DNA of 64,000 bases from Escherichia coli (lineage in GTDB: Bacteria; Pseudomonadota; Gammaproteobacteria; Enterobacterales; Enterobacteriaceae), in assembly GCF_011045215.1 (NCBI RefSeq), contig NZ_CP049201.1; one strand, 5' to 3'. Shown here piece after piece: positions 20,108 to 40,749 of the stretch (position 1 is its first letter; the number at the start of each line of letters is the position of its first letter). Below the pieces are notes generated by a model, which had not been told where the DNA came from, ran no database searches, and saw only the letters and a list, made by a program, of their open reading frames with translations. The position numbers were made by a program, and so were the translations under genes.

Positions 20108-20835
20108 AACATCCCTCCGTTGATGGAAATAACCTGGCGGGTGACGTAACCCGCAATATCAGACATTAAATAACTGGCAAGCCCGGCAACTTCTTCCGCC
20201 TGGCCCATACGTTTCATGGGGATCATCGACATTGCCTCTTTCAGAGCGCTCTCTTCCATTTCGATCATCCCGGTATCAATAAGCCCCGGCGCGATGCAGT
20301 TGACGGTGATTTTGCGCTTCGCGAGTTCGATAGCCAGCGCTTTTGTTGCGCCGATAATTCCGGCTTTGGCAGCGCTGTAATTCACCTGGCCGCGATTGCC
20401 CATTACGCCGGAAACCGAGGATAGCGTGATGATGCGCCCACCCTGGCGTGCGCCGATCATCGGCATAATGCACGGCTGAATGACGTTGTAGAAACTGTCG
20501 AGGTTGGTGTGGATCACCGCATCCCAGTCGTCATCGCTTAAAGCCGGAAAAGCGGCATCGCGGGCGATCCCGGCGTTACTGACCACGCCGTACCAGGCAC
20601 CGTGTTGCGCGATCTCATGCTCCAGCACTTCCCGACACTGTTCGCGGTTTGCGACGTCGAAACTGAGCAAACGCCCGTTACCCCCATTGGCGACAATGGC
20701 ATTCAGCGTTTCCTGAGCGCCTGTGGCGTCACGGTGATAGTGAACGCCAATGTTAAAGCCGTCTGCCGCCAGTTGGCAGGCGATGGCGCGACCAATGCCT
20801 TTGCTGGCACCAGTAACCAGAACTGAACGACTCAT
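20104..20835 (-). CDS. 3-oxoacyl-ACP reductase (SDR, FabG-like)
   Basis: 243 aa; TGASKGIGRAIA cofactor motif, NAG, YSAAK catalytic motif. Would be apeQ by order (unverified). Confidence 0.85.
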   Translation of the reverse strand: MSRSVLVTGASKGIGRAIACQLAADGFNIGVHYHRDATGAQETLNAIVANGGNGRLLSFDVANREQCREVLEHEIAQHGAWYGVVSNAGIARDAAFPALSDDDWDAVIHTNLDSFYNVIQPCIMPMIGARQGGRIITLSSVSGVMGNRGQVNYSAAKAGIIGATKALAIELAKRKITVNCIAPGLIDTGMIEMEESALKEAMSMIPMKRMGQAEEVAGLASYLMSDIAGYVTRQVISINGGML

Positions 20836-21299
20836 CAGGACGCTCCTTGTTGAAACAGGGTGGTAAGTTCTTCCGCGGTCGGCTGGAAGGTGTTAATGCG
20901 GCCCGTCGCCTCGCCGTCGTTGATGCTGCACTCAAAACTGCCGAAGCGATCGTCCTGCATCAGCAGTTTGACGGTAATGGTCAGCGTCTGGCCTGCGGGC
21001 AGAATGCCAGTGGTGCAAAGCAATTCACGCGCGCCCAGTATCATCCCTAACTCAATACTGTTTTTGCCTTGCTGGTGGCGATGCCAGCCAGACCAGACGC
21101 CGACGGTTTGCGCCATCAGTTCAAGGGCAAACCAGCCAGGGAGATTGCCGTCCGGGTCGAGAAACGGTGCCAGTACGCCACTGGGCGAAACCGTCACGCG
21201 GCACACCGCGCTGTCATCGCTGACGCTCACCACGTCTTCCAGCAGTAACATGGGCGCGTCGTGGGGCAGATAAGCGCCGGGGGATAAATAGTGGCTCAC
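20835..21299 (-). CDS. Hot-dog fold 3-hydroxyacyl-ACP dehydratase (FabA/FabZ-like)
   Basis: 154 aa, hot-dog-fold size and composition; sits between KR and KS genes. Would be apeP by order (unverified). Confidence 0.7.
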   Translation of the reverse strand: MSHYLSPGAYLPHDAPMLLLEDVVSVSDDSAVCRVTVSPSGVLAPFLDPDGNLPGWFALELMAQTVGVWSGWHRHQQGKNSIELGMILGARELLCTTGILPAGQTLTITVKLLMQDDRFGSFECSINDGEATGRINTFQPTAEELTTLFQQGAS

Positions 21300-22474
21300 G
21301 AAACCCTCCCGAGCAGAATGCTGGCGTTATTGCCGCCAAAGGCGAAGGAATTGGACAGGATCACCGGACGTGCCAGCGGCTGTGGTTTTTCGATAATGCC
21401 GCACGGTGGCAGCGTGGGATCGCACGGCGACAGGCTGAAGTCCTGAGCGGGCAGCGGTAAATCACGCTGTAAAATCAACATGCTGATTGCCGCCTCGGTA
21501 ATGCCCGCCGCGCCCAGCGTGTGGCCGGTCAAATGTTTGGTGGAACTGCACGGTACGCGTTCGCCAAACAGGGCGTTAACCACCATTGATTCAATCTGAT
21601 CGTTGAGTTGTGTGGCGGTGCCGTGCAGGTTGATATAGCCGACGTCATCTGGCGTAAGCTGTGCATCGTTCAGCGCCTGATTAATAGCGCGGATCGCTCC
21701 TTCGCCCTGCGGATGCGGGGCTGAAATATGGTAAGCGTCGCTCGATTCACCAACGCCCAGCAACGCGATGGGCTGCGGTTCCCGGGTCAGCAGCATTAGC
21801 CCCGCCCCTTCACCAATGGTGATACCTGCGCGGTCACGACCAAACGGCTGACATAAGGTTGGCGACAGCGATTCGAGGCTGTGAAAACCGTTAATCGGCA
21901 TCCGGCTCAGGGTGTCTGCGCCACCCACAATGGCGGCATCGACCAGCCCCGCTTCGATAAGCCTGCGCCCGCTGATTATCGCTCTGGCGCTGGAAGAGCA
22001 GGCGGTTGAAAGGGTATAGGCCGGGCCGTCGAGCGCCAGCCAGTGGCTGAGAAAACGCGACGGATCGCCGAGTTCCTGTTGCGCGTAGTGCCATGTGGTG
22101 CTCGGCTGCCCGTGGGTGCGCAGGTTAACGTGCGTGTCGCCTTCATGCAGGCCGGAGGTGCTGGTGCCAAGTACAATCGCGATGCGCTCGCGACCATATT
22201 TCGCGATAGCGTCATCAACCTGCGGCTGGATCTGCGCCAGCGCCGCCAGCAGGATCTGATTGTTGCGCGAGCGGTGCGCAGCGAATTTTTCCGGGATAAG
22301 CGGAAGCTCGCCATCCACGCCAGCCAGGACCGCCTGCGGATGCCCCTGCAACCAGCCTGCGCGCGGGCGCATGCCGGGAGCAACACCGCGAGTCAGGTTG
22401 GTTGCGATTTCGTCAAGGTTATTTCCCAGGGCGTTGATCATGCCGACGGCGGAAATATAAATCATATCAGTCAC
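21296..22474 (-). CDS. Beta-ketoacyl synthase (elongating KS)
   Basis: 392 aa; active-site contexts STACSSS, HGTATQ, GHTLGA. Would be apeO by order (unverified). Confidence 0.85.
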   Translation of the reverse strand: MTDMIYISAVGMINALGNNLDEIATNLTRGVAPGMRPRAGWLQGHPQAVLAGVDGELPLIPEKFAAHRSRNNQILLAALAQIQPQVDDAIAKYGRERIAIVLGTSTSGLHEGDTHVNLRTHGQPSTTWHYAQQELGDPSRFLSHWLALDGPAYTLSTACSSSARAIISGRRLIEAGLVDAAIVGGADTLSRMPINGFHSLESLSPTLCQPFGRDRAGITIGEGAGLMLLTREPQPIALLGVGESSDAYHISAPHPQGEGAIRAINQALNDAQLTPDDVGYINLHGTATQLNDQIESMVVNALFGERVPCSSTKHLTGHTLGAAGITEAAISMLILQRDLPLPAQDFSLSPCDPTLPPCGIIEKPQPLARPVILSNSFAFGGNNASILLGRVS

Positions 22475-23051
22475 CTAAGTATTGAATGGTGATGTGGTAT
22501 TTAAAGACATGCTGCTCAATGCTGATTGGCACGCGTTTTCCCTGGCGATTCAGATAGGTGATTTCCGTGACCAGTTTGCCGCTGGCGTTACGCAGCTCGC
22601 GTTTGTCACCGTTGTCGCGAAGTGTCCATCCTGCGGGAAGTTGCGGTTGCCAGGCGCTAATCGGCCAGTGGCTGAGCATCACGTCAGCCAGTACCTGACT
22701 TGCGGGCGGTAACTGTGGGACGACGATGGATTGCTCGGCGCGTAGCCCTTGCGCATCGTAGGTCACCAGAAACAGGCGAATGCCGACCGACGACAGCCCG
22801 GCAAGGGTGATTTTCTGATCGTCGGCGTTAAGCATTACTAGCAGCGACTGGGTGTTGCCGTTGAAGCTGCCGGTTAACAGTTGCTGGGAATTGACGGCGG
22901 GTGAAATCCCCGGTGCCGGCAGCGTGATGCGCGTGCCAGGTTGCAGCCACGCCTGCGGGCGGCCTTCCTGTTCCGGTTGCGAGTGGCTACAGCCGGTGAG
23001 GATAAGCGTAGCGGTCAGGGCGAACGCTCGCCAGAAGGTAGGTTTGATCAT
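22467..23051 (-). CDS. Lipoprotein (DUF3261-like)
   Basis: 194 aa; signal peptide with lipobox (LTGC). Confidence 0.7.
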   Translation of the reverse strand: MIKPTFWRAFALTATLILTGCSHSQPEQEGRPQAWLQPGTRITLPAPGISPAVNSQQLLTGSFNGNTQSLLVMLNADDQKITLAGLSSVGIRLFLVTYDAQGLRAEQSIVVPQLPPASQVLADVMLSHWPISAWQPQLPAGWTLRDNGDKRELRNASGKLVTEITYLNRQGKRVPISIEQHVFKYHITIQYLGD

Positions 23052-25366
23052 TTTTTTGTTCTCTTTTTATCGGGCATAGCCAGCGGCGAAAGCAGGAAGG
23101 CGGTGAAAATACCGCTCACCAGCACAATGCCAAAACTGCTGATGGCCTGGGTGGCGCTGAATACCAGCATTCCCAGCGTCAGCAAGGTGGTGAGCATTGC
23201 CAGTGTGATCGCCAGTAGCGAAGTTAACGGCGTACCGCGCGGATTACTGAAAAACAACGTGTAGTTGATACCGATGCCAAGTACCAGCACCAGCGCCAGC
23301 AGCGAAAAGAGATTCACCGCCTGCCCGCTCATCGCCAGCACCGCCAGACCACAGCCCAGCGAAAGCACCGAAGGCACCAGGCTGATAAGCCCTTTGCGCC
23401 AGCCGAGACGGGCCACTGCGCCGCAGGCAATCACTGCCAGCGCCACCAGCAACAAGCCGGTTAAGACGTAGCGGTAAAGTGCGAACAATTCATCAAAGGT
23501 GCTTTTGCGATCAACCCAGGCAATGCCGCAAGGGTAATATGTGGCGATTTCCTGCATCAACGCGCTACTTTTAACCCCTTCAACCGGCACCAGTACGCCG
23601 CTTTCGCCATTTTCCAGCGTCAGCCACAGCAGACGCCAGCCTTCACTGGCGGGGCTTGCCAGCCATTCATCAACGTTCACTGGCATGGCGTTGAGATCTG
23701 GTTTCACCGCCGTCAGCCCGGCGTTTTGCAGTGCTTTTGTTACCGTCGGGGCCGCCGTTTTCAGCAGGTCTAAATCTTCCTCCTGTCGCGCCAGAGAGTT
23801 CAGCGGAATAGTGCGGTAATTGCTGATAAGACCGTCTTTTTTCGCCTTCTCCAGCGAGGAGGTAAATGTCTCCAGCCGTCCCAATGTTTGCTGTGGGGAG
23901 TCGCCGTAAACCACAAACCATTTTTGATCGACGCTTTGCCCGGTCAGGGCGGTAATGGCTTTCTCCTGGGTCAGAATATGCTGCGGTAGCGCCTGTAACT
24001 GCGAGATATCGTCATCGACGCGCAGCATTGACATCCCCGCCAGCGAAAACAGCGCCAGCGCGACGGGCAGACCCAGCGACAGTTTTTTATTACGCCGCCA
24101 CGCTGCCAGCCAGCGTAGCATCAGCGCCATCGCCGGAACCGGACGCACCGGCAGGCCACGGCACAGCCACGGATGCCAGAACAGGACGGTCAGACAAGAG
24201 GCGCTCAACCCGACGGCGGCAAAAATCGCCATCTGGCGAATGCCTGGGAAGGGGGCGAGCATCATAATCAGATACGCCGCCACGGTGGTGAGCAGCGCCA
24301 GTAGCAAGGCATTGCGTACTTTCGCCAGGCTTTGCCACGGCGAAACGTCGTTGCCGTGCACCATCCGCTCGGTGAGATAATAGAGCGTGTAGTCAGCGGA
24401 AATGCCGATAACGCTCATGCTCATTACCAGCGTCATCAGGTGTAATTCACCGAAAATCAATAAAGTGGCGACCGTTCCCGCCAGCGCGCCGATGCCGATG
24501 GAAATCACGCAAAGCAGCAACGGGCGCAAAGAGCGGAACACCGCCACAATCAGCAATATCACCCCCAGCAGCGTTGCCACGCCCAGGGTTGAGATATCCT
24601 GCTTCGCCTGTTGGCTGGCGTAATCGCTGTAAAACACCGTGCCGCGCGAAAGCAGCTGCGCCTGCGGGTAACGCGTTTTCAGATCCTTTTCCAGCGTATT
24701 CAGGGTCGTGATGAGCTGGTGGGTTTGCTGCATATCAAACGACGATCCCGCCAGTTCACCGTGCAGCAGATACCAGTAGTTGCCCTGGGGATCCTGCGTC
24801 ACCAGCCAGCCGTCCATCAGCCGCAAACGCTGGCCGTTTTTCGCCATCGCCAGCTGCGAGCCGCGCATTAACATCAGCGGATCGTTTTGCAGCTCCTTGC
24901 CGCTTACCCCGGAGAACGCAGAATAAAGCTGGGAGAGGATCCACTGCGCCTGCGCTTCGCCGCCGTTTTGCAGGCGCGCGCGGGTGTCGGGGTCAATCAG
25001 GCCGTTGCGGTGCTGCCAGAAAAACGCTCCCCACGCTTGCTGGCTGGCGGCATCCATTGGCCCTTTAACGTCGCCGAGCGCAGCGGATTTTTGCAGCAGC
25101 GTCAGCCACTCCTGAGCGACCAAAGGATTAGCCTCTTTACCGGGGCTGACCAGCCACACCAGTTGGCGGTCAAGACGCTGCATAAAGCCGTCATTCAGCG
25201 CCGGAGGAATATCGCCCATCGTCTGTTTGGGTAACATAGCCAGCACGCTACTGTTCAGCCGTGATTGCGGCAGCAGGATCAGCAACGCCGCCGCCATGAC
25301 CAGGCAGACTAGCCCCCATAACAGCGCGGGGCGTTTACTGGGCGGCAAAACGTTGGCGTTCGTCAT
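23048..25366 (-). CDS. MMPL/RND-superfamily membrane exporter
   Basis: 772 aa; two blocks of transmembrane helices each following an extracytoplasmic domain, typical of MMPL-type lipid exporters. Confidence 0.75.
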   Translation of the reverse strand: MTNANVLPPSKRPALLWGLVCLVMAAALLILLPQSRLNSSVLAMLPKQTMGDIPPALNDGFMQRLDRQLVWLVSPGKEANPLVAQEWLTLLQKSAALGDVKGPMDAASQQAWGAFFWQHRNGLIDPDTRARLQNGGEAQAQWILSQLYSAFSGVSGKELQNDPLMLMRGSQLAMAKNGQRLRLMDGWLVTQDPQGNYWYLLHGELAGSSFDMQQTHQLITTLNTLEKDLKTRYPQAQLLSRGTVFYSDYASQQAKQDISTLGVATLLGVILLIVAVFRSLRPLLLCVISIGIGALAGTVATLLIFGELHLMTLVMSMSVIGISADYTLYYLTERMVHGNDVSPWQSLAKVRNALLLALLTTVAAYLIMMLAPFPGIRQMAIFAAVGLSASCLTVLFWHPWLCRGLPVRPVPAMALMLRWLAAWRRNKKLSLGLPVALALFSLAGMSMLRVDDDISQLQALPQHILTQEKAITALTGQSVDQKWFVVYGDSPQQTLGRLETFTSSLEKAKKDGLISNYRTIPLNSLARQEEDLDLLKTAAPTVTKALQNAGLTAVKPDLNAMPVNVDEWLASPASEGWRLLWLTLENGESGVLVPVEGVKSSALMQEIATYYPCGIAWVDRKSTFDELFALYRYVLTGLLLVALAVIACGAVARLGWRKGLISLVPSVLSLGCGLAVLAMSGQAVNLFSLLALVLVLGIGINYTLFFSNPRGTPLTSLLAITLAMLTTLLTLGMLVFSATQAISSFGIVLVSGIFTAFLLSPLAMPDKKRTKK

Positions 25367-25940
25367 CGGTCAGTTGCGCTGGCGTCAGTTGATGTTGGGT
25401 AAGAGCAATATCGGTGCGATCGCCCTGTTTATCATTAAGTTGAATGCTCTCCAGATAGGTTTTCCCGGCGAGATCGATGGTGTTGAAAATTTTATCCAGC
25501 GGCGTGGTGGTCGGCGTCAGGCGCAGCGTCCAGCGGCCTTCGCCTTTGTCAGCAAATTCGACGCGGAAGTTTTGTTCCAGCACTTTGCGATCGGCCTGGA
25601 ACAGCGCGCGCAGCAGGTGGTTAAACTGGAACATCTGCGGGTTGTTTTCTGCCGTGATGATTTGCGGCGGCTGACCGTTGATCACCTGCACCATGCGTTT
25701 ATCGTCCAGTAATAGCTGCATGGGGAATGGTGAGGTTTGATCCCACAACAGCCCCTGGTCGCGGGCGATCAACATCTGGCCCTGAGATCGCAGCGGCTGC
25801 GGCAGATCTTTAATCGTCCGGGTTTGATCGAAATGGGCGCGGATCACCGGTTGTTCGGTAAAGCGTTGCTGAAGATCGTCCAGGGTCAGGGCGCTCACAA
25901 ACGGGCTAATCAGCAGCGCCAGCAGCGGTAAAAATTTCAT
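25335..25940 (-). CDS. LolA-like outer-membrane lipoprotein carrier
   Basis: 201 aa with signal peptide; LolA-family length and composition; 32-bp overlap with the MMPL gene. Confidence 0.65.
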   Translation of the reverse strand: MKFLPLLALLISPFVSALTLDDLQQRFTEQPVIRAHFDQTRTIKDLPQPLRSQGQMLIARDQGLLWDQTSPFPMQLLLDDKRMVQVINGQPPQIITAENNPQMFQFNHLLRALFQADRKVLEQNFRVEFADKGEGRWTLRLTPTTTPLDKIFNTIDLAGKTYLESIQLNDKQGDRTDIALTQHQLTPAQLTDDERQRFAAQ

Positions 25941-26359
25941 GGTTTGACTCCCATGCGTTCAAACAGAATATCGGGGCTGACAAAGCACAGTTCGCGACTT
26001 TGCTCGTCGACCGCGACCTGAATGGTGTATCCGGTGGTGGCGCGTTTGCCCGTTTCGGCATCGAAAATCTGATAGCCAATCCGCAGACGGTTTTCGAACT
26101 CTTCGATATGCGCACGCACGCGGATGCGTTGCTCAAAGGTGAGGGCGTGGCGATATTTCACCCGCGCATCGACCACTGGCCACAAATAACCGGACTCTTT
26201 CATCTGCCGATAGCCGTAATTGAACTGGTTGAGCAGCGCCTCGCGAGCCACTTCAAAGTAGCGAAAATAGTTACCGTGCCAGGCCACGCCCATCATATCG
26301 ACGTCGTGAAAGGGAATGGTCAGCTCGACTTCAGCGGTAAATCGGGGATCGTTAAGCAC
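25937..26359 (-). CDS. Acyl-CoA/acyl-ACP thioesterase (4HBT / YbgC-like hot-dog)
   Basis: 140 aa; 4HBT-type N-terminal motif (IPFHDVDMMGVAWHGNYFRYFE). Confidence 0.8.
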   Translation of the reverse strand: MLNDPRFTAEVELTIPFHDVDMMGVAWHGNYFRYFEVAREALLNQFNYGYRQMKESGYLWPVVDARVKYRHALTFEQRIRVRAHIEEFENRLRIGYQIFDAETGKRATTGYTIQVAVDEQSRELCFVSPDILFERMGVKP

Positions 26360-26362
26360 CCT

Positions 26363-28039
26363 TTACTCCTTGTCCTGAATTTCCGGCAGTTGCCAGAAAT
26401 CGAAAAAATTAAACCAGTCGAGGGGCGACTGGAGCGCGTAATGTTCCAGACGCGCGGCGTAGTGGTCGATAGCGTTTTGCAGCGCCTGCTGGCGTTCGCC
26501 ACGCGGCAGTTGCAGCGGGTCGGCAAAGCTTTCGCAGTGAATATGCAGCTTGCCGTGCTGGCGTAGGGCGAAAATCAGATTCACCGGGCAGCGCAAAATA
26601 GACGCGAGAATAAACGGTCCCTGTGGGAAAGGCGCAGGCTGGCCCATAAACGAACTCCAGCAGACGCGCCAGTCGCCGCCGCGTTGCGGGGTGACGGCGA
26701 TACGGTCACCGACAATCGCCACCCATTCCCCGTTATCCAGCTTCTCTTTCAGCAGGATGGCGGTTTCTGGGCCGATATCTGTTACCGGCATCAGGTTAAT
26801 GCCTGCCTGAGGAGCCATCTCCTGCATTATCTGTTTAAAGCGTTGGGCGTTTTCGCTAAACACCAGCGCGTTAATGGTTTTGTAGCCCTGAATTTTTGCC
26901 AGCGCCCGGCACACTTCCACATCGCCAAGATGCGAGGCCAGCAGCAATTTGCCGCGCGGATCGCGGACGTCAAGCGCCGCTTCTGCGCCTGGCGCAAACA
27001 GCACATCACGCCCCAGTTGTAGCTCGCCGCGCCAGCTGGCGATTTTGTCGAGCATGGCATTACCGAAACGTAGAAAGTGCTGATAGCTGTTGAGTTTTGC
27101 CGCCTGTGGTTGATGCTGTCGTACACGGGCGAGCCAGTCTTGCGACGCTTTGCGCGCACGAGAAGCAGTGAGCCAGTAGACGCCCACCACCGGGTAAAGC
27201 AGCGCGCTAAACGCCGTTCTTCCCAGCAGACGCCAGACCAGCAGCATCAGGCGCATTCCCCATAACCCTTTCACCTCACTCTGCCGCGCCCAGTGGCTGG
27301 AAGAACGGCGCATCAGCAGTGAAGGAATACGCGGCAACATGCCGAAAAATAGACGCGTGTGCATGAGCGAGATGCGGACGTTATCTTTCAGGGCATCAAA
27401 ATGCGAAAGCCCGTCCAGCGGATAGGTGACGCGGGTCGGCACGAAATAACTGGTGTTTCCCTGCCAGTAGAGGCGCACCATCACTTCGGTGTCGAAATCC
27501 ATCCGCTTGCCGATGGTGGCGTGTTTTGCCAGTTGCAGCGTTGGCGCAACCGGATAAACGCGAAAGCCGCACATGCTGTCTTTCAGTTGCAGGGAGAGCG
27601 TTTCGATCCATACCCAGACGTGAGTGACCCAGCGCCCATACAGCCGTGAGCGGGGGATGGAGTCATCGTAAATTGGCTGGCCGGAGATCAACGCCGCAGG
27701 GTGTTGTTCAGCGAGTGCCAGCAGTTTGGGGATATCTTCAATCGCATGTTGACCATCAGCATCTACCTGCACCGCATGGCTGAACCCCGCGTCTGCCGCT
27801 GCCTGTAAGCCGCGCATCACCGCCGCGCCTTTACCTGCGTTTTCTGCCAGGCGGATTAAGGTCACGCCAGGCTGTTCGCTAATCAGATTATCCAGTTGCT
27901 GTTGCGTGGCGGCATCGCTGCCGTCGTCCACCACAATACAAGGCAGATTAAATGGCTTAAGACGCGCCAGCACGCCCGGCATCATCGCGCCGTGGTTGTA
28001 GCAGGGGATCAACACGCAGGGAGAAAAGTTTACCGACAT
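26363..28039 (-). CDS. Two-domain protein: N-terminal family 2 glycosyltransferase fused to a C-terminal acyltransferase-like domain
   Basis: 558 aa; GT2 motifs (VVDDGSD, DxD-type VQVDADGQH) in the first ~230 aa, followed by membrane-associated and acyltransferase-like segments. Confidence 0.7.
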   Translation of the reverse strand: MSVNFSPCVLIPCYNHGAMMPGVLARLKPFNLPCIVVDDGSDAATQQQLDNLISEQPGVTLIRLAENAGKGAAVMRGLQAAADAGFSHAVQVDADGQHAIEDIPKLLALAEQHPAALISGQPIYDDSIPRSRLYGRWVTHVWVWIETLSLQLKDSMCGFRVYPVAPTLQLAKHATIGKRMDFDTEVMVRLYWQGNTSYFVPTRVTYPLDGLSHFDALKDNVRISLMHTRLFFGMLPRIPSLLMRRSSSHWARQSEVKGLWGMRLMLLVWRLLGRTAFSALLYPVVGVYWLTASRARKASQDWLARVRQHQPQAAKLNSYQHFLRFGNAMLDKIASWRGELQLGRDVLFAPGAEAALDVRDPRGKLLLASHLGDVEVCRALAKIQGYKTINALVFSENAQRFKQIMQEMAPQAGINLMPVTDIGPETAILLKEKLDNGEWVAIVGDRIAVTPQRGGDWRVCWSSFMGQPAPFPQGPFILASILRCPVNLIFALRQHGKLHIHCESFADPLQLPRGERQQALQNAIDHYAARLEHYALQSPLDWFNFFDFWQLPEIQDKE

Positions 28040-28413
28040 AGGCGGATCTTCCCGCTACTGGCGGTGTGGCGGGCGTCACCGTCGTGACGCTGATAGCTAA
28101 AGCTCAGAATCTGGCGATCTTCCTGCCAGTTAAGCGTGAGCGTGACGCGGTTTTCCGGCAGCAACGGAGACTGGAATTTTATGTTCTGAATGGAGTGAAA
28201 ACGCCAGCCAGGCGCGAGCAGGGCAAGCGCGTAACTCATGGCCCAGTCGATTTGCGCAACTCCTGGGAGTAATGGTTGCACGGCAAAATGGCCGCGAAAC
28301 CAGAACAGATCTGCCCTGAGATGCAAAACAATCTCAAGGTGATTCGCTTGTGCCTGATGGCGCTCGATTTCATGGGGCTTCATGAAATAACTCCTGTAAT
28401 TGCGCATAGACAC
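28030..28413 (-). CDS. FabZ/FabA-like hot-dog dehydratase
   Basis: 127 aa; FabZ-type motif (FRGHFAVQPLLPGV). The start may lie at an internal Met (MKPHE...). Confidence 0.75.
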   Translation of the reverse strand: MSMRNYRSYFMKPHEIERHQAQANHLEIVLHLRADLFWFRGHFAVQPLLPGVAQIDWAMSYALALLAPGWRFHSIQNIKFQSPLLPENRVTLTLNWQEDRQILSFSYQRHDGDARHTASSGKIRLCR

Positions 28414-29731
28414 GCTTGTTCATACTGTTTACTGGCATTTCATCAATAACGCGCCAGTAACGCGGAATGGCAACCGGCTCCAGCATCGGGCGCAGTAATC
28501 GCCGCCAGGCTATTTCCTGGCTATGCCCGCCGCCGTGCTGCCATTGCAGGCGAGCTTCGTCATCCAGCACCAGCAAAACGCCAATGCACTGACGCCCGCC
28601 GCGTGTAACAGGAACTGCCGCCGCCTCGCGAATACCGTCCAGTGCCAGCAGACGTTGTTCCACTTCCTGGAGTGAAATGCGTTTTTCTTCAATTTTAACG
28701 ATGCGTCCGCGACGCCCCATCAGATGGAACTGGCCGTCTTCGCTAAACTGTAAGATATCGTCGAGTAACAGGCCGTTATCTTCCGCCATCAGCGGTGAAA
28801 AGAGACGAAAAGAATCACCTTCGGCCTGGAACTGCATACCTGGGAGGGGTAGCCAGCGGCGTTGCTCTTGTTCGCGGTAGCGCCAGGCGATGACGCCGGT
28901 TTCCGTGCTGCCGTAGATTTCATCAGGCCAGACGCGCAGCCAGCTTGCGGTGTGTTGTACATCCTGCCACGGCAGCTCACCGCCAGCAGAGAGAAGCACC
29001 TGAACGGGTGGCGGAGAAAGCTGGGTATCCAGGCGCTTCAAAAATGCCGGGCTGCTGATGAAGATATAGCGATGCTGATGACTCAACGCGGCAAACTGTT
29101 CGACATACCAGAGCATGGCGGCGTGCAGCGGTAATCCCAACGCCATGGGCAGGAAAACGCGAAAAGTCAGGCCGTACAAATGCTGCGGCAATACGGAACC
29201 GACGACACGACAACCCGCCAGACGTGCGCCTAATCGTTCAGCCAGCAGTTCTGCTTCACGATCCAGCAAATGAACAGGTTTAATCACCCGTTTCGGCTGT
29301 CCCGTGGAACCGGAGGTAAACAGCTCGATAAAAGCCTCTGGCGCTATAGCGGAAAAGGTGAAGGATTGTGTCGCGATTTGTGGAGAACTTGCTACCAACA
29401 GCAATGAACCTTGCCAGTTAAGTTCGCTGTCGCTAAGCACACCATCAAAAAGTTCACGTTGCTCGTTAAGCTGGATAACACGGTTATGCCCCGGAAGCAC
29501 CGGCGTTTTTCCGGCGTGTAGCGTGGCGAGCAGGGCAACGATAAACAGATAGCTGTTCTCAAAGCACAGCGCCCAGCGTTCACCTGGCTGTTGCTGCAAG
29601 CGGCAGATAAGTTGCGCGACATCGTGACGCAAATCGCCCAGCGTCCAGGTGCTTTCGTCCAGCCACGCAATGGGCGTGTCATCAGGGCGTGGCGCAGTCA
29701 GCCAGCGTGCAAGCGGTAAGGTCTGCTTCAT
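28370..29731 (-). CDS. AMP-dependent synthetase/ligase (adenylating enzyme; candidate aryl starter-unit activator)
   Basis: AMP-binding motif TSGSTGQPK. Start placed at the Met that forms an ATGA overlap with the upstream gene's stop (plus strand 29728-29731 reads tcat); the ORF track extends to 29770. Confidence 0.8.
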   Translation of the reverse strand: MKQTLPLARWLTAPRPDDTPIAWLDESTWTLGDLRHDVAQLICRLQQQPGERWALCFENSYLFIVALLATLHAGKTPVLPGHNRVIQLNEQRELFDGVLSDSELNWQGSLLLVASSPQIATQSFTFSAIAPEAFIELFTSGSTGQPKRVIKPVHLLDREAELLAERLGARLAGCRVVGSVLPQHLYGLTFRVFLPMALGLPLHAAMLWYVEQFAALSHQHRYIFISSPAFLKRLDTQLSPPPVQVLLSAGGELPWQDVQHTASWLRVWPDEIYGSTETGVIAWRYREQEQRRWLPLPGMQFQAEGDSFRLFSPLMAEDNGLLLDDILQFSEDGQFHLMGRRGRIVKIEEKRISLQEVEQRLLALDGIREAAAVPVTRGGRQCIGVLLVLDDEARLQWQHGGGHSQEIAWRRLLRPMLEPVAIPRYWRVIDEMPVNSMNKRVYAQLQELFHEAP

Positions 29732-30309
29732 GCGCGATCTCTTTTCATCACCTGACGGCGCACCAGCCATTCACCAGCCATTAATGTTCCCATCAACAAA
29801 TAAGCAATCATGCCGTTCCAGGCGGTCCATAACGACATATCGGCATAAAGCGCGGTAAAGAGGGCAATTCCACCGTTGATGATGAAAAAGCCGCACCAGA
29901 TTTGCGTGACGCGGCGGGTATAGCGCATGCCCTTTTCCGGCAGATCTGGCTCCTGCAAACGCGCCAGCCGCTCAACTATCGGCATTGCCGACCACAGCGA
30001 ACCGCCAAAAACCGCCAGCATGACCGCGTTAACCACTACCGGGTAAAACAGCAGTAGCTGGTGTGTTTTCAACAGAACGCTGGCGACACATAATGCGATG
30101 CCCACGACAGCGACGATTTGTGTGACGACCTGGAGCGGCCCCGCCTGGCGACGGGTCTGGCGCAGGCGCAACAAAAGCAGCAACGCTATTAGCGGCAACA
30201 GCCAGTGCAGGCCGTTATGCGCTAAGCCAAACCAAATCACAAACGGCCAGGCGAGCAGCAATAATCCAGTCAGCAGCTTAATCATCGGTAGCGAGCGAAT
30301 GCCCGACAT
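29728..30309 (-). CDS. Small polytopic membrane protein of unknown function
   Basis: 193 aa, about 5 predicted hydrophobic helices; embedded in the operon with coupled stop/start. Confidence 0.6.
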   Translation of the reverse strand: MSGIRSLPMIKLLTGLLLLAWPFVIWFGLAHNGLHWLLPLIALLLLLRLRQTRRQAGPLQVVTQIVAVVGIALCVASVLLKTHQLLLFYPVVVNAVMLAVFGGSLWSAMPIVERLARLQEPDLPEKGMRYTRRVTQIWCGFFIINGGIALFTALYADMSLWTAWNGMIAYLLMGTLMAGEWLVRRQVMKRDRA

Positions 30310-30313
30310 CAGA

Positions 30314-30565
30314 TCAGGCTTCTTGTAGCAGGCGTTCTACAGCCTCGACGACATCCTGGACTGTACGCACTGCTTTAAACTCTTCCGGCTTGATTTTCTT
30401 ACCGGTTTTCTTTTGCAGGTGCACAATCATGTCAACGGCGTCGATGCTGTCCAGTTCCAGATCTTCGTACAGGCGCGCTTCAGGTTTGATGTCCTGCGGA
30501 TCGATTTCAAACAGCTTAACCAGCAGGGCTGAGACTTCCTGATAGACGGTTTGTTGTTCTGTCAT
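30314..30565 (-). CDS. Acyl carrier protein
   Basis: 83 aa; phosphopantetheine attachment motif (LELDSIDAVD). Confidence 0.85.
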   Translation of the reverse strand: MTEQQTVYQEVSALLVKLFEIDPQDIKPEARLYEDLELDSIDAVDMIVHLQKKTGKKIKPEEFKAVRTVQDVVEAVERLLQEA

Positions 30566-30576
30566 GATGGCTTTCC

Positions 30577-30834
30577 TCAGGCACGTTGCGCAGCAATGAA
30601 AGAGGCCAGAGTGGCGACGGAGAAAAAGTGCTGACGCATCTCTTCGCTTTCCGCAGAGAGCACGATGCCGTACTCATTTTTTACTGCCAGTCCCAGTTCC
30701 AGGGCATCGATAGAGTCCAGCCCTAAACCGTCGCCAAACAGCGGCGCGTCGGTATCGATATCATCAGGCGTCAACTCGTCCAGATTGAGGGTGCTGATGA
30801 TGAGGTTTTTAATTTCCAGATAAAGCGCTTGCAT
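30577..30834 (-). CDS. Acyl carrier protein (second, divergent copy)
   Basis: 85 aa; attachment motif (LGLDSIDALE). Confidence 0.85.
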   Translation of the reverse strand: MQALYLEIKNLIISTLNLDELTPDDIDTDAPLFGDGLGLDSIDALELGLAVKNEYGIVLSAESEEMRQHFFSVATLASFIAAQRA

Positions 30835-31630
30835 TATTTATTCCTGAGAGAGGTAAACAACCTTGTTGTAATTGAAGCAAAAGATGCCGGTTTAACTGCC
30901 TTGCTGCCAGCGCCGGTTCTTGTGAAGTTGCATCGTAAAATTTATTGATTTCAACCCGACCATGGACTGCAACCGTAAAAAACGGCCGGTCAGGTGGAAC
31001 GTCATACCATTTACTTTGTTTATCCAGCAGATGCTCGCTACAGCCGATCGTCACGATGCGTAAATCGCTGGCACAGCGCACGGCAATATTCGCCGCCCCG
31101 CGCTGCAGCGTCATTTTTTCACCGGGCTTCGTTCGCGTGCCTTCGGGGAAAATCAGGATAGTGTCACCCTGTGCCAGTCGCTGTTGGCAGCGGGGTAACA
31201 GGGTTTCAGCTTCGCTGTTGATTAAATAATCTGCCGCCCGCACGACGCCGCCAAGAAAAGGATTTTTTAACAGCGCGCTTTTCACCAGGCAGTCAGTTTC
31301 TGGCATGACTGACGCCAGCAGCACGTAATCGATCAGCGTGGGATGATTGGCTACGACGAGGCAACCGCGTTCCTGACGTAAAATTTCAGCGCCATCAATA
31401 CGATAATCCAGCACGCCAAGCCCTTTCGCGACAGTTAAAAACAGGCGAAAACTGGCGGCAATGCTGCGACGCGCCAAACGACGGCGGCGGGAAGTATCCC
31501 ACACCAAAACTAACAATATGTTAAACCACACGACAGAAAGCAGCAGGCCGCCGAGACCAAACAGGGCAAAACATAACCCGGTCATGACCAGTCGCCAGGT
31601 CCACTCCAGACGTGACATCAGCTTACTCAT
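30809..31630 (-). CDS. Lysophospholipid acyltransferase (PlsC-like)
   Basis: HX4D acyltransferase motif (NHPTLID). Start placed at the Met giving an ATGA overlap with the upstream gene (plus strand 31627-31630 reads tcat); the ORF track extends to 31648. Confidence 0.8.
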   Translation of the reverse strand: MSKLMSRLEWTWRLVMTGLCFALFGLGGLLLSVVWFNILLVLVWDTSRRRRLARRSIAASFRLFLTVAKGLGVLDYRIDGAEILRQERGCLVVANHPTLIDYVLLASVMPETDCLVKSALLKNPFLGGVVRAADYLINSEAETLLPRCQQRLAQGDTILIFPEGTRTKPGEKMTLQRGAANIAVRCASDLRIVTIGCSEHLLDKQSKWYDVPPDRPFFTVAVHGRVEINKFYDATSQEPALAARQLNRHLLLQLQQGCLPLSGINNASALSGN

Positions 31631-32352
31631 CTGTGGCTCCAGCGCCATTGCACGCGCTCGCCAGGCAGTGAAAATGTGTCTACATTTTGTAAATAGTGCT
31701 GTAAAAACAACATGCTTTGCGGCAGTGTTGTTTCATTGCCCGCAATGGCTGACTGCGTTTCACATTGCCAGTCATCGCCAGCTTCAATCACCAGCGCGAC
31801 GGCGTACGGCCAGGTCGGCATTTCTGCAGGCAGTTGTGGGTGATAAAACTCGGGCAGAAAACCGTCAAAATCGACCATCAGCACGCGCTGGTATCCCGCT
31901 TGTAACAGGCTAAGCACTTCACACAAACCTTGCTGGAAAGTGTCGCGACCAGCAGAAAGCGATGACGAAACGATCGGCTGTTTGGCCGCAATGGTCAGGT
32001 TACCCACGGAAGAGTTGTGTACTGAAAGTGCAAAGTCGGTCGGAGAAAGCGCCTGTTCGGTTGCCAGTGCATGAACAATGCGGTAATTGCGCTCCAGTTC
32101 GCCATGACGACTGGTATACAAAACGGCGTCTGGCTGATGGCGGCGTAGCATTGCCAGACCGCATTCAACAGCCAGTTTGCTGCCTGAACTGAGGCGGCGG
32201 GCGGTCATCATTGGCAGTTCACTTAATTTTGCCAACGGCGCGGCAGGGTCAATCGCCCACGGCTGGCGCGACCATGCTTGCCATTGCTGCGCTTCGCTAA
32301 GTCCAGGCGCCAGTGCCTGCCAGTCGGTAATATTTAATGTAAATTTCATCAA
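31627..32352 (-). CDS. Short ketosynthase-like protein (chain-length-factor-like KS partner)
   Basis: 241 aa with KS-like sequence but much shorter than a full KS and no clear Cys-His-His triad (SVHNSSVG where the active-site Cys block would be). Confidence 0.65.
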   Translation of the reverse strand: MMKFTLNITDWQALAPGLSEAQQWQAWSRQPWAIDPAAPLAKLSELPMMTARRLSSGSKLAVECGLAMLRRHQPDAVLYTSRHGELERNYRIVHALATEQALSPTDFALSVHNSSVGNLTIAAKQPIVSSSLSAGRDTFQQGLCEVLSLLQAGYQRVLMVDFDGFLPEFYHPQLPAEMPTWPYAVALVIEAGDDWQCETQSAIAGNETTLPQSMLFLQHYLQNVDTFSLPGERVQWRWSHR

Positions 32353-32389
32353 CGCGCGCCCGCGGTAAACCCAAATTATTAAGTGACGA

Positions 32390-33457
32390 TTATTTCTTTT
32401 GGCATATCAAAAGTGTATGCCCAACGCCTAAATTATCGTGGCGCTCTGCTACCTGGAATCCTGCTTTATTCAGATAGTCGTAAAATTTCTCTGCACTATA
32501 GAAACGGCTGTTACCGTTTGCCATGCAGGTAAAATAAAGTGAGGACGCGTTCAGGCTAAACGATGCTGCTTCAAACCGCTGCGCATCCCAGAACAACTCC
32601 ATGATGCAAACTTTTGCGCCAGGCTTCATTACGCTGGCAATTTTGCTGAGTATGCTAATTATTTGTTCGGGTGAAAAACAGTCTAAAAATTGGCTCATCC
32701 ACCAGATATCAGCCTCGCCCGGTAATGGGGCATCGCTTAGCATATCCACCGCATGGAAATCTATGCGATCAGAAAAACCTGCATTCGCGATATTTTCTTT
32801 CGCTAGTACGATTTGTTGTGGCAGATCTAATAACGTCACGGCGATGTTTTCATTGTATTTGCAGCAACGCAAAGCCCACTTACCCGTATTGCCGCCTACA
32901 TCGTACAATGTTGTGGGGTTGTTGGCGAATACATAAGGCAGTGCGGCGTTAAATGCGCCATCTGAATAGTAATGATCAAACGCAAACCAGCTTTCACGAG
33001 CGGCGTCTGGTAATTGCGAAAGTGCCGGATATATCGTCGACCAGTCGCCAAATACTTTTAACCCGGAAGGTTTTCCTTCATTGAGTGAATCGGCGAGGAA
33101 GAAGAGCCCCTGGTAACAGACATCCTGGGTGAAATCCATATTCACGCGAGTCATAGTGTCATGCAGGAGGTAATGACCGATTTTCGCCAGGTAATAAATT
33201 CCCTCTTTACAGGTAATAATTCGCCCGCTTAAGCCCATATCTAACAGAACGCTGGCAGCATATTCGTTGATATGGCTATGTTCGGTGATATCAGCCAGCG
33301 TTGCGCCATGTTTGCCTTGCCGATCCAGATATGAAAGTACACCCGCATTACGTAGGCAGAGTGCTGTTTGAAAAAGCATAGGGGCAAAGGCAATGCGTTG
33401 AGCTTCGGTAATCGCATCCAGTGCGCTAAGAGAATCCTGTTCGTACATGTTGGGCAC
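32390..33457 (-). CDS. SAM-dependent O-methyltransferase (class I)
   Basis: 355 aa; SAM-binding motif (LYDVGGNTGKWA) within a C-terminal Rossmann-like domain. Would be apeB by order (unverified). Confidence 0.8.
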   Translation of the reverse strand: MPNMYEQDSLSALDAITEAQRIAFAPMLFQTALCLRNAGVLSYLDRQGKHGATLADITEHSHINEYAASVLLDMGLSGRIITCKEGIYYLAKIGHYLLHDTMTRVNMDFTQDVCYQGLFFLADSLNEGKPSGLKVFGDWSTIYPALSQLPDAARESWFAFDHYYSDGAFNAALPYVFANNPTTLYDVGGNTGKWALRCCKYNENIAVTLLDLPQQIVLAKENIANAGFSDRIDFHAVDMLSDAPLPGEADIWWMSQFLDCFSPEQIISILSKIASVMKPGAKVCIMELFWDAQRFEAASFSLNASSLYFTCMANGNSRFYSAEKFYDYLNKAGFQVAERHDNLGVGHTLLICQKK

Positions 33458-33516
33458 AACCTGTTAAGAGGGAATTAAATTATTATCGGACCGCAACGGC
33501 CCGACTTTAGGAAGAA

Positions 33517-33906
33517 TTATAAATCTGCGCCCGCTGACAAATTCAGTTGAATATCTTTGTCGAGATTGCGGACCCAGCGATTGTAGTTTTTATGAATTTG
33601 TCCGCCTGACGCTTGTAGGTTCTGGCTATTTTCATAATTGATATCGTAGCTGGATGCCGTGTAGTTAATGCGTATTTCCGCTGAATGATCGCGTGACTGT
33701 TGACGTGCTTTAATTATGCCTTGTCCGGCTTCGGACATAATCCATTTGCGTTCAACGCCAGCTTTCAGAATCGCTTTTTTCACTTGTTCCTGGGTATGAC
33801 CAGCGCTGACGGTTGAGTGAACCTGATCAATTGGCGCAGTACGCGCGCAACCTGCTAAAGCACCCACAACAGCAATAGCCGCAAACCATTTCATGTAATG
33901 TCTCAT
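33517..33906 (-). CDS. Small lipoprotein of unknown function leading the cluster
   Basis: 129 aa; signal peptide plus lipobox (LAGC); the real start may be the internal Met at MKWFAAI. Confidence 0.6.
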   Translation of the reverse strand: MRHYMKWFAAIAVVGALAGCARTAPIDQVHSTVSAGHTQEQVKKAILKAGVERKWIMSEAGQGIIKARQQSRDHSAEIRINYTASSYDINYENSQNLQASGGQIHKNYNRWVRNLDKDIQLNLSAGADL

Positions 33907-34236
33907 TAGAACCCCATTAAAGTATTGTTTTTACGAGTAAAGCAAGATTTAACTGTAATTGCTGGCATCACTATTCTTTATTTAGAGAAAAAATTACTTG
34001 TGAGATAAGTCAGTAAGTGCACATCAGAGTAAAAATCTCTGAAATGACTAAATTACTGCCAGCAGGGACCAACTATAAGTGAGTGAGAAAAATGAGGCAA
34101 TAAAAATAACACAATGTTATCAGTGCATTCTTTGAGAAGGATTTAATCGCTATTCGGCGTTTATATATATTTGACTTAAGGAATGGTTTTTTTAAATTAA
34201 TTTTCTGAATAATGTTTCATCATTTCCTCAAATCAA

Positions 34237-34265
34237 ATGGCCACTGTTAGATAAACGGTGGCCAT
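34237..34265 (-). terminator. Hairpin downstream of yhhT (candidate terminator)
   Basis: 8-bp inverted repeat ATGGCCAC / GTGGCCAT with 13-nt loop, 20 bp after the yhhT stop. Confidence 0.4.
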
Positions 34266-34285
34266 TGCCTGCTCAGGAGGTGCTA

Positions 34286-35335
34286 TTAACCCGGTAACCG
34301 ACTTTTCGGTCTGCCCGGCCCCAGTAAAATCGCCAGTTTGCTACCGCCTTTGGTGGTTTCCATCCAGATTTTACACACGCTGGTTAATGGCACCGAAAGT
34401 AGCATCCCTACCGGGCCGAGCAGCCATCCCCAAATTAACAATGAAAGAAATACCACCATGGTGGACATCCCCAGGCGATGGCCCATCATCCGTGGTTCTA
34501 AAATATTGCCGATAACCATATGGACAACTAAAAACAATGCGCCGACCAGAATACATTCGTAAACACCATTAAACAGCAGCACCTGAATCATTGGCGGTAC
34601 GGCGGAAATTACCGCGCCGATATTGGGCACGTAGTTGAGCAAAAACGCCAGTACTGCCCACATCAGCGCAAACTGCACCCCCATCAGCTCCAGCCCCAGC
34701 CAGACGATGACACCTGTCCATAAACTGAGTAGCGTCTTCAATGCAAGATAGTGCGAAACACCTTTTAAGGCGCGGTGTAGTCCGGCGATATGAATCTGTG
34801 GATTATTCAATGCAAAACGCATTTTGTAAGGGACGTGGCGCACTTCAAACAGCATAAAAACTACGGTCATCACCAGCAAAAGCACGCTCGCCATTGCCCC
34901 GGAAAGCCCGGTCATTAGCGCTGTGGTGAAGGTAACCACTTTTTCCGAGTCCATCCGCTGCAGCATTCGCTCCGGCGACATATGCAAATTAAGAAAAGGC
35001 AACATCTCCTGCAATTTAAAAAGTTTGCGCGTCAGCTCCTTATTAAACTTCGGCAGCATAGAGATAAATTCGTTAAACGATGCCGCCAGTACGCCGACCA
35101 GCGCGGTTAGTGTGATCAGCATCACCACCACCACAATCGTAATGGCAACGGGGCGTTTTACTCCCCGTCGAATAAACCAGGTAACGAGCGGGTTGAGGAC
35201 GATGGCAAAAAACAGCGCCAGTAACAGCTGCACAATGATATCTGCCGCTGCGTGAATGCCCGCGAGGATCACTACCAGCGAGGCCAGCTTGAGCAGAATG
35301 TGCATGCCCGTTTTATCGGGTTGAGGGGTTTCCAT
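34286..35335 (-). CDS. yhhT: AI-2E/PerM-family membrane transporter
   Basis: 349-aa product starting METPQPDKTG; the ORF track adds a 27-codon upstream extension. Confidence 0.88.
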   Translation of the reverse strand: METPQPDKTGMHILLKLASLVVILAGIHAAADIIVQLLLALFFAIVLNPLVTWFIRRGVKRPVAITIVVVVMLITLTALVGVLAASFNEFISMLPKFNKELTRKLFKLQEMLPFLNLHMSPERMLQRMDSEKVVTFTTALMTGLSGAMASVLLLVMTVVFMLFEVRHVPYKMRFALNNPQIHIAGLHRALKGVSHYLALKTLLSLWTGVIVWLGLELMGVQFALMWAVLAFLLNYVPNIGAVISAVPPMIQVLLFNGVYECILVGALFLVVHMVIGNILEPRMMGHRLGMSTMVVFLSLLIWGWLLGPVGMLLSVPLTSVCKIWMETTKGGSKLAILLGPGRPKSRLPG

Positions 35336-38518: not shown

Positions 38519-38544
38519 CCGATCGCGCTCAATGTTGCGATCGG
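38519..38544. terminator. Palindromic hairpin between convergent tusA and zntA
   Basis: 8-bp inverted repeat CCGATCGC / GCGATCGG with 9-nt loop, followed by TTTG on the plus strand. Confidence 0.45.
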
Positions 38545-38550
38545 TTTGCC

Positions 38551-40749
38551 TTATCTCCTGCGCAACAATCTTAACGCATTCGCTGTCACCAGCACCGTCG
38601 CACCCGTATCTGCCAGCACCGCCAGCCATAGTCCGGTCATTCCTAACAGCGTGGTGACGAGGAAGATCCCTTTCAGCCCCAGCGCAATAGTGATGTTCTG
38701 GCGGATATTGGCGTGAGTGGCGCGTGCCAGTTCAATCATTTGCACCAGACCGCGCAGGTGGTTATGGGTTAATGCTGCGTCGGCGGTTTCCAGCGCCACG
38801 TCTGTGCCGCTGCCCATTGCAATCCCGATGGCGGCAGCTTTCATCGCTGGCGCGTCGTTAATACCGTCACCGACCATCGCCAGCGGCGCATGTTGATTCA
38901 GCTCGGTCACCGCTTTGACTTTATCTTCCGGCAACAGGCCCGCTTTAAACTCCAGCCCCAGCTCCCCGGCGATTGCCGCCGCAGCGCGTGGATTATCGCC
39001 GGTGAGGATCACTCCTTTAACCCCCAGCGCGTTCAGTTCACTGATGGCAGTTGCAGCGTCGGCGCGCAGGGTATCCTGTAACGCAATGACACCAAGCACG
39101 TCATCGTTACGTACTACCAGCACTACCGTTTGCCCGGCGCTTTCCAGTTCGTTAATTAAACCAGCAAATGCATCAGCGGGATGTTTCCCGGCAGCGCAAA
39201 TCAATACGCGCTCACCGTTAACCTGCGCTTCAATGCCAGACCCGACCAGCGCCCGCTGTGATTCGGCGGCGGGAATGGCGAGTGCAGCAACCTGTGCTTC
39301 GCGCACGATGGCCTGCGCCAGTGGATGCGTCGCGCCTTGCTCGACCGCCGCCGCCAGTGTCAGCAGTTCAGATTCACTAATACCCGTTGCCGGATGAATC
39401 GCGGTAACGCGCGGTTTACCGACGGTCAGCGTACCGGTTTTATCAAACGCCACCTGGGTAACACGACCTAGCTGCTCCAGCGCCGCACCGCCTTTAATTA
39501 ACGCCCCACGACGTGCCGCTGCTGCCAGCCCGGAGGTAATCGCCGCGGGCGTGGAGATAACTAACGCACACGGGCAGCCAATCAGCAGCAGCGTCAGGCC
39601 TTTATAAATCCACTCTTGCCAGCTGGCGGCAAACAGCAGCGGCGGCACCAGCGTTACCAGCAGGGCGACGGCCATAATCGCTGGCGTATAAATACGGCTG
39701 AAACGGTCGATAAACCGCTCAATGGGAGCGCGACGCTCTTCGGCTTCTTCGATCAGTTTCAGAATCCGGTCAATGGCGCTGGCTCCCGGTTCGGACAATA
39801 CTTCCAACGTCACCAGACGGTCTACGCTGGTGGCGCCTGCAGGAACTTTATCGCCCGTCGCACGCTCCACCGGAATGGATTCGCCGGTCAGGGCGCTTTC
39901 ATCAAAACTGGCAAAGGGTGAGAGCAGTTTACCGTCGGCAGGCAAACGCCCACCCGCCGCAACTTCAATCACATCGCCAGGGCGCAGGCTGTTAATTGCC
40001 ACCTCTTCACGCTCACCGTTACGCAGGCGCGTGGCGTTTTCTGGTTTCAGCGCCATTAACGCGCTGACGCCCTGACGCGCGCGGCTGGCGGCCCAACCTT
40101 CTAGTCGTTCACCAATCAAAAACAGCAGCAACACCATCGCAGCTTCAGCCGTTGCGCCAATAAACAGCGCACCAATAGCGGCTACGCTCATTAACGTTTC
40201 AATGGCGAAGTAACTGCCTGATTTGATCAGCCGTAATGCCTGACGAGCAATCGGGTACAGCCCAACCAGCGTGGTCGCGATAAACGCCAGTTGCCCGAAC
40301 GGATGATTGAACTGCTCCAGACCCCAGCTGATTGCCATCATCACGATTAGCGTAATCAGCGGCAGATTCTCTTTCAGGCGCGATTCTTGTTGTTCTTCGG
40401 CGGCCTGTTCATCGCGTAGGGAATAGCCCGCTTTTTGCACCGCAGATTCAACCTGGGCACGGATGTCATTGTCGGCATCCACCACCAGTTTTTCGGTGGC
40501 GAACAACACCTGCACCTGATTCACGCCTGCAAGCTGGCGCACGGCGTTTTCTACCTTGCGCGCACAGGCGGCGCAGTCCATGCCGCTGACTTTCCAGCTA
40601 TAGCGGGTGCCGGAGACGTTTTCAGAGAGCGTTGGCGTGCTGGAACATGCGCCGTCGCAGCAACAGTCGTTGGCGTTCTGTACCGTGGTTAGCGGTTTGA
40701 ACGCAGCAAATTGAGGGGCTTTCTTGCCGTGATTGTCAGGAGTCGACAT
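38551..40749 (-). CDS. zntA: Zn/Cd/Pb-exporting P1B-type ATPase
   Basis: 732 aa; N-terminal Cys-rich stretch and GMDCAAC metal-binding motif, CPC motif, DKTGT phosphorylation site. Confidence 0.92.
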   Translation of the reverse strand: MSTPDNHGKKAPQFAAFKPLTTVQNANDCCCDGACSSTPTLSENVSGTRYSWKVSGMDCAACARKVENAVRQLAGVNQVQVLFATEKLVVDADNDIRAQVESAVQKAGYSLRDEQAAEEQQESRLKENLPLITLIVMMAISWGLEQFNHPFGQLAFIATTLVGLYPIARQALRLIKSGSYFAIETLMSVAAIGALFIGATAEAAMVLLLFLIGERLEGWAASRARQGVSALMALKPENATRLRNGEREEVAINSLRPGDVIEVAAGGRLPADGKLLSPFASFDESALTGESIPVERATGDKVPAGATSVDRLVTLEVLSEPGASAIDRILKLIEEAEERRAPIERFIDRFSRIYTPAIMAVALLVTLVPPLLFAASWQEWIYKGLTLLLIGCPCALVISTPAAITSGLAAAARRGALIKGGAALEQLGRVTQVAFDKTGTLTVGKPRVTAIHPATGISESELLTLAAAVEQGATHPLAQAIVREAQVAALAIPAAESQRALVGSGIEAQVNGERVLICAAGKHPADAFAGLINELESAGQTVVLVVRNDDVLGVIALQDTLRADAATAISELNALGVKGVILTGDNPRAAAAIAGELGLEFKAGLLPEDKVKAVTELNQHAPLAMVGDGINDAPAMKAAAIGIAMGSGTDVALETADAALTHNHLRGLVQMIELARATHANIRQNITIALGLKGIFLVTTLLGMTGLWLAVLADTGATVLVTANALRLLRRR

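Follow-up and report, generated by a model that had tools for sequence, protein, structure and literature searches.

ApeC of an Escherichia coli aryl-polyene cluster is a half-size, catalytically dead ketosynthase relative and the predicted partner of ApeO

The window, a stretch of 64,000 nucleotides, is part of an E. coli chromosome and is 98.5–99.9% identical to NZ_OZ282453. Between acpT and yhhT it carries the aryl-polyene (APE) biosynthesis cluster, 18 co-oriented genes running from apeR to apeA on the minus strand (18878–33894). Gene-by-gene translation reveals no internal stop codon in any of the 18, and the gene list from apeA to apeR agrees gene for gene with Table 1 of Johnston et al. 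(2021; PMC8253772). Aryl polyenes are outer-membrane pigments whose gene clusters are among the most widespread bacterial families, and in E. coli they are associated with protection from oxidative stress and with biofilm formation (PMC8253772, PMC12871727). In strain K-12 yhhT and acpT are adjacent, 54 bp apart, with no ape cluster; relative to K-12 the ∼15-kb cluster is an insertion/deletion polymorphism placed exactly between acpT (18289–18876) and yhhT, with the second flank at 33894–34286. The AcpT protein, a phosphopantetheinyl transferase, activates the O157:H7 homologues of ApeE and ApeF in vitro (PMC8253772).

The third gene of the cluster, apeC, lies between apeB and apeD and is the subject of this analysis. 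It occupies an uninterrupted open reading frame on the minus strand, 31627–32352, which encodes 241 residues if translation starts at the TTG at 32352; an ATG follows directly, at 32349. The ATG is the better start, because RefSeq places the start there (240 residues) in a genome with an apeC of 100% identical DNA sequence, because ApeC of Xenorhabdus doucetiae begins at the equivalent Met (N-terminus MKLTL), and because nearly all of the 72 aligned family members keep Met1. The open reading frame is real, and the true coordinates of apeC, encoding a half-size ketosynthase-like chain length factor of 240 residues, are better given as 31627–32349. Directly upstream is apeB (32390–33448, minus strand), encoding a SAM-dependent methyltransferase (PF00891 and PF21212). 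On the other side is apeD (30809–31630, minus strand), encoding a lysophospholipid acyltransferase (PF01553, E 1e-19), the ATG of which overlaps the apeC stop codon by 4 nt (ATGA, 31627–31630), an arrangement that suggests translational coupling of the two genes. Other neighbors in the cluster overlap as well (apeR/apeQ, apeP/apeO, and apeM/apeL), consistent with coupling in a polycistronic operon. Next come apeF and apeE (together 30314–30834, minus strand), which have intact open reading frames and encode two acyl carrier proteins (ACPs), as annotated by RefSeq at a locus with 98.5% identity; ApeE and ApeF bring substrates to ApeO–ApeC (roles in PMC12624758).

Two full ketosynthase genes, located at 18878–20107 and 21296–22474 by an earlier note on this DNA, are indeed present in the cluster. 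The open reading frame first called at 21296–22474, with 392 residues, is apeO; its RefSeq start is at 22465, giving 389 residues and coordinates 21296–22465 on the minus strand. The encoded protein matches chain A of PDB 6QSP with E 9e-176 and NCBIfam NF006618 with 558 bits, and its Cys (in STACSSS) and two His residues (in LHGTAT and TGHTLG) align with the FabF triad. ApeO is thus a competent ketosynthase, and the suggestion that the 392-residue enzyme is the partner of the short protein agrees with its orthology to 6QSP chain A and with the predicted ApeO–ApeC heterodimer. The second gene, apeR (18878–20107, minus strand), encodes a FabB/FabF-like ketosynthase of 409 residues with both PF00109 and PF02801 and a score of 778 bits to NF006587. 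In both ApeO and ApeR the FabF Cys, both His, the Lys, and the gating Phe are all kept, in invariant alignment columns. ApeR of Acinetobacter baumannii is homodimeric (PMC8358021). With orthologues in vitro, full-length polyene is obtained from ApeO–ApeC alone, and ApeR gives shorter species and raises throughput. Whereas apeC is near the start of the cluster, apeO is ∼9.2 kb and 11 genes away, a separation also remarked on by Johnston et al. (PMC8253772).

The ApeC sequence matches Pfam family PF13723 (Ketoacyl-synt_2, 'Beta-ketoacyl synthase, N-terminal domain') with E 1.1e-66 over the complete profile (1–223 of 223) and a score of 225 bits against a curated cut-off of 25, far beyond chance, so that the earlier description of a ketosynthase-like open reading frame of 241 residues holds, with 240 residues from the preferred ATG. 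PF13723 is the sole Pfam match; the same search finds neither PF00109 nor PF02801 in ApeC, and a search of NCBIfam returns no matching family. Among solved structures the best match is PDB 6QSP chain B (E 2.7e-92, ApeC residues 2–239), deposited under the title 'Ketosynthase (ApeO) in Complex with its Chain Length Factor (ApeC) from Xenorhabdus doucetiae'. ApeC of A. baumannii (PDB 7F28 chain A, E 1.5e-14), from the ApeO–ApeC structure of that organism (PMC8358021), is also retrieved. AlphaFold prediction from the single ApeC sequence is unusable (pLDDT 38), and the AF2 model used here was instead built on the 72-sequence alignment; it is compact, with pLDDT 95.7 and pTM 0.92. Foldseek again places 6QSP chain B first (TM 0.94/0.95, rmsd 1.5 Å over 238 columns), followed by A. 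baumannii ApeC, the ishigamide chain length factor Iga12, FabF enzymes, and the actinorhodin chain length factor.

The initial homologue search returned only relatives of at least 72% identity, too close for an assessment of conservation, and diversity was obtained from a search of a representative library, which contains 2,106 clusters of ApeC relatives at 50% identity (E up to 1e-3). Nearly all relatives among the clusters listed have ∼240 residues, and the 72 aligned family members range from 233 to 259, compared with 389–413 for ApeO, ApeR, and FabF. The half-size architecture is accordingly the norm of the family rather than a truncation. ApeC is 95% identical to the protein encoded by the copy in strain Nissle 1917, and the dN/dS value of 0.175 between the two genes is consistent with purifying selection on apeC. 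On every point open to test, ApeC is a member of the PF13723 family, and nothing was found in this analysis that contradicts the identification of the gene as apeC of the E. coli APE cluster, an identification that is already published and is rightly reflected in the RefSeq product name, 'beta-ketoacyl synthase chain length factor'. Less secure is the name 'chain length factor' itself, which is taken up below.

The finding that ApeC lacks the catalytic residues of a ketosynthase comes from alignments with E. coli FabF, ApeR, and ApeO. In a MAFFT alignment the nucleophilic Cys163 of FabF falls opposite Arg135 of ApeC, in the sequence SAGRDTF. A profile–profile alignment of the 72 diverse relatives with FabF/ApeR/ApeO, weak by itself (probability 8%, E 0.004), again places the FabF Cys opposite Arg135 and pairs ApeC residues 75–165 with FabF residues 102–194. 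The equivalence of the two positions is accepted because the two methods agree and the fold is shared. Direct comparison is less informative: a BLASTP match of ApeC to the neighboring ApeO is not significant (E 0.22) and does not allow the active-site position to be placed, indicating that kinship to true ketosynthases is remote. The Arg135 column is hypervariable, with 17 different residues, Gln in 5 of the 72 relatives, and Cys in none. The Cys residues that ApeC does have (63, 143, and 196) are not conserved, each being shared by no more than 14 of the 72 sequences. Of the His residues only His111 is invariant, and its FabF counterpart is a Val that lies in a structural helix upstream of the active site; in the MAFFT alignment ApeC ends before the second thiolase half, which bears both catalytic His residues. 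The absence of the Cys-His-His triad from ApeC is thus confirmed, in agreement with the earlier observation that no clear context for it could be seen: the FabF Cys has its counterpart in Arg135, and the His-bearing half is missing. The alignment with FabF that the earlier note had proposed as a check has now been made, and it recovers neither an intact Cys nor the two His residues.

Residues that are conserved lie elsewhere. Arg51, Arg52, Ser102, Pro103, Phe106, Val110, His111, and Asn112 are invariant in all 72 relatives and Ser109 is nearly so, which defines a motif S-P-x-x-F-x-x-S-V-H-N at residues 102–112 that is invariant or nearly invariant among sequences sharing ∼30–50% identity. There is in addition a conserved stretch S-R-H-G-E-L at residues 80–85. 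Together, residues 102–112 and 80–85 are the best candidate for a surface directed toward the ApeO pocket or the subunit interface. In the profile–profile alignment the SPxxF..VHN stretch pairs with the FabF structural helix ISPFFVPSTIVN. In A. baumannii ApeC the conserved surface residues Arg30, Arg31, and Thr83 are positioned for ACP docking (PMC8358021), and in alignments these correspond to Arg51, Arg52, and Thr104 of E. coli ApeC.

The earlier comparison of the short protein with catalytically dead partner subunits that set chain length is borne out by X. doucetiae ApeC, of which E. coli ApeC is an orthologue (6QSP chain B; E 3e-92 in round figures). The two proteins have 239–240 residues, share 59% identity in the Foldseek alignment, and adopt the same fold (TM 0.94). 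With both the X. doucetiae protein and ApeC of strain CFT073 (c1202), E. coli ApeC shares its gene position between apeB and apeD, the loss of catalytic residues, and, by prediction, an ApeO partner. The residue equivalent to the catalytic Cys is Ile in X. doucetiae and Arg in E. coli, and the differences from the Nissle/CFT073-type protein, to which E. coli ApeC is 95% identical, are only allelic. A. baumannii ApeC belongs to the same family (E 1.5e-14 in sequence, 4e-14 in Foldseek) and likewise has a single thiolase fold and keeps the Arg-Arg pair and the Ser-Pro-Thr sequence; it forms the heterodimer with ApeO that is predicted for E. coli ApeC, although its identity to E. coli ApeC is only ∼25%. 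It has been described as half-size, with the second thiolase half lost, and it lacks ∼20 residues at the N-terminus, which in X. doucetiae ApeC make up the first helix (PMC8358021); E. coli ApeC keeps this segment, as X. doucetiae ApeC does.

The relationship to FabF and FabB is that of a common ancestral fold. The shared region, ApeC 75–165 and FabF 102–194, includes the helix preceding the active site together with the nucleophile-bearing strand-turn-helix, but FabF is a homodimer of 413-residue subunits with a Cys-His-His triad, whereas ApeC has half the fold and none of the triad residues. ApeC therefore does not belong with the active elongating ketosynthases of the FabF/FabB type, which carry the triad. 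The likeness to the actinorhodin chain length factor (PDB 1TQY chain B) and to Iga12 of the ishigamide system (PDB 6KXF chain B) is of another kind, in that each is a dead ketosynthase paralogue that forms a heterodimer with an active ketosynthase, the pair having one shaped pocket; for ApeC the heterodimer and its pocket are predicted. With ApeC as the query, Foldseek finds these proteins with E 2e-8 to 3e-7 and TM of ∼0.62–0.67. They are nevertheless near full length (358–402 residues in the crystals) and have both thiolase halves, whereas ApeC has essentially one, and the classical factors belong to PF00109/PF02801 and ApeC to PF13723. Classical chain length factors typically have at the Cys position a conserved Gln, which has been linked to decarboxylative priming and is the defining residue of the group; in ApeC this position is Arg135, in a hypervariable column with Gln in only 5 of 72 sequences. 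The genes of classical factors usually adjoin and often overlap the KSα gene (PMC9006962), in contrast to the ∼9.2 kb and 11 genes that separate apeC from apeO. ApeC would thus work like a classical KSβ/chain length factor, yet by size, Pfam assignment, the missing Gln, and gene adjacency it falls strictly outside that family.

What is known of the orthologues provides the basis for a functional interpretation. ApeC and ApeO form a heterocomplex in which elongation is attributed to ApeO and ApeC is called the chain length factor (PMC8253772). Crystal structures of the heterodimer exist from X. doucetiae (6QSP) and A. baumannii (7F28). The heterodimer has pseudo-two-fold symmetry and a single, asymmetric cavity lined by both subunits, the end of which is formed in A. 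baumannii by ApeO His138 and ApeC Glu142. The biochemistry of the X. doucetiae complex (Grammbitter et al., 2019) is used here as relayed by PMC8253772, PMC8358021, and PMC9006962. By analogy, E. coli ApeC can be expected to behave as its orthologues do, forming a heterodimer with ApeO that makes full-length polyene. It is highly probable that ApeC is a dead, single-thiolase-fold partner of ApeO that performs no chemistry of its own and lines the pocket of its partner. It is a ketosynthase remnant from which the nucleophilic Cys and the whole His-His half have gone and which by itself cannot condense. In a pseudo-two-fold heterodimer it would stand in for the subunit that completes a normal ketosynthase homodimer. 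ApeO would have one substrate cavity, shaped like a funnel, which residues of ApeC would help to line and to close, and the acidic carrier proteins ApeE and ApeF would dock at the invariant Arg51-Arg52. The complex would iteratively extend 4-hydroxybenzoyl-ACP with malonyl units, each round being followed by reduction by ApeQ and dehydration by ApeI/ApeP, until the rigid polyene, with about six to seven double bonds, fills the pocket and extension stops. On the same analogy, residues of ApeC itself may set the final length of the polyene.

A contribution beyond scaffolding can be imagined for the invariant Arg51-Arg52 and the conserved motif, for example one in which His111 and Asn112 would reach the ApeO pocket and discriminate or release the β-keto intermediate after each condensation. 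The Asp that performs this discrimination and release in the ishigamide synthase is absent from ApeO–ApeC (Lee et al.). Such a role is unlikely; if it were true, ApeC would actively determine 'one condensation, then release' rather than act as a passive ruler.

ApeC might alternatively be an obligatory structural partner, completing the dimer interface, stabilizing or solubilizing ApeO, and aiding ACP docking, with polyene length depending instead on the ApeO pocket, on how rigid the polyene is, or on later enzymes such as the thioesterase ApeK. In the orthologue literature, Grammbitter et al. (2019) aside, the case for length control by ApeC is built on the shape of the cavity and on docking, and no ApeC pocket mutants, and none that shift product length, were found there. 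Moreover, the invariant residues are the putative ACP-docking Arg-Arg pair and the SPxxFxxSVHN motif, among which no bulky gatekeeper is obvious, and Glu142 at the end of the A. baumannii cavity falls opposite Gly163 of E. coli ApeC, so that, within a numbering uncertainty of one residue in this alignment, that particular contact may not be kept in E. coli. On the other hand, both subunits line the cavity, and of the two residues at its end one comes from ApeC; a review has the depth of the ApeO–ApeC pocket setting chain length, and residues of the chain length factor set product length in the actinorhodin, AntDE, and Iga11–Iga12 pairs (PMC9006962). A purely structural contribution is considered very unlikely, and a dead partner that lines the ApeO pocket remains the preferred description of ApeC.

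We give almost no credence to a catalytically active ApeC, either as a cryptic condensing enzyme with another nucleophile or as a malonyl-ACP decarboxylase of the KSQ/chain length factor type that serves in priming. Ser102 and the His111-Asn112 pair, invariant in the 72 relatives, could hint at chemistry, but the alignment of SPxxF..VHN with the equivalent FabF structural helix identifies this stretch as scaffold inherited from ketosynthases and not as a newly formed active site. Where a ketosynthase has its nucleophile, the family is hypervariable, never with Cys and seldom with Gln; no Cys is conserved anywhere in the protein, and the half of the fold with the two His residues is missing. 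A decarboxylative starter is also unneeded, as ApeH primes the system by loading 4-hydroxybenzoate onto ApeE. The last candidate, that apeC is a decaying, functionless fragment of a former full-length ketosynthase gene, has next to no chance of being correct: the protein does have only ∼60% of ketosynthase length and no significant BLASTP match to the neighboring ketosynthase (E 0.22), but ∼240 residues is the family norm among the clusters listed, dN/dS is 0.175, AF2 predicts a compact fold with high confidence, two orthologues have been crystallized bound to ApeO, and in the accessible part of the CFT073 study apeC is counted among the core biosynthesis genes, most deletions of which abolish the pigment (PMC8253772). 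A fragment or pseudogene, a cryptic active ketosynthase, and a KSQ-type decarboxylase were thus all rejected.

The identity of ApeC as a dead partner subunit is established knowledge rather than a new inference, and its recovery here is an ordinary finding that leaves the published picture of the gene, the orthologue structures, and the role unchanged. Correct recognition is nonetheless of use for annotation, since ApeC is neither a broken ketosynthase nor a third active one; Table 1 of the CFT073 study lists it as '3-ketoacyl-ACP synthase' (PMC8253772). By analogy with its orthologues, it would be the subunit through which a fatty-acid-type ketosynthase becomes a polyene synthase of defined product length.

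apeC is present in 824 of 5,426 complete E. coli genomes, and the 18-gene cluster has two chromosomal sites in this species. The copy in the window is at the acpT–yhhT site, as is that of the closest RefSeq genome, and the O157 and O145 strains that carry apeC are presumed to share this site. The Nissle-type copy, in contrast, is in a genomic island; the Nissle 1917 cluster (NZ_CP007799, 1116404–1131425) lies in a degraded island with pseudogenes and IS elements on its flanks and is taken here as equivalent to the CFT073-type cluster that has been studied genetically (PMC8253772). The DNA of apeC differs by ∼5% between the two sites, and one genome has two places that match apeC. Elsewhere in the window, the gap between tusA and zntA resembles K-12: the closest RefSeq genome has ∼400 bp more there (L001, 23520–23936, encoding hypothetical protein WP_335267373), and this segment is absent at window positions 38538–38551.
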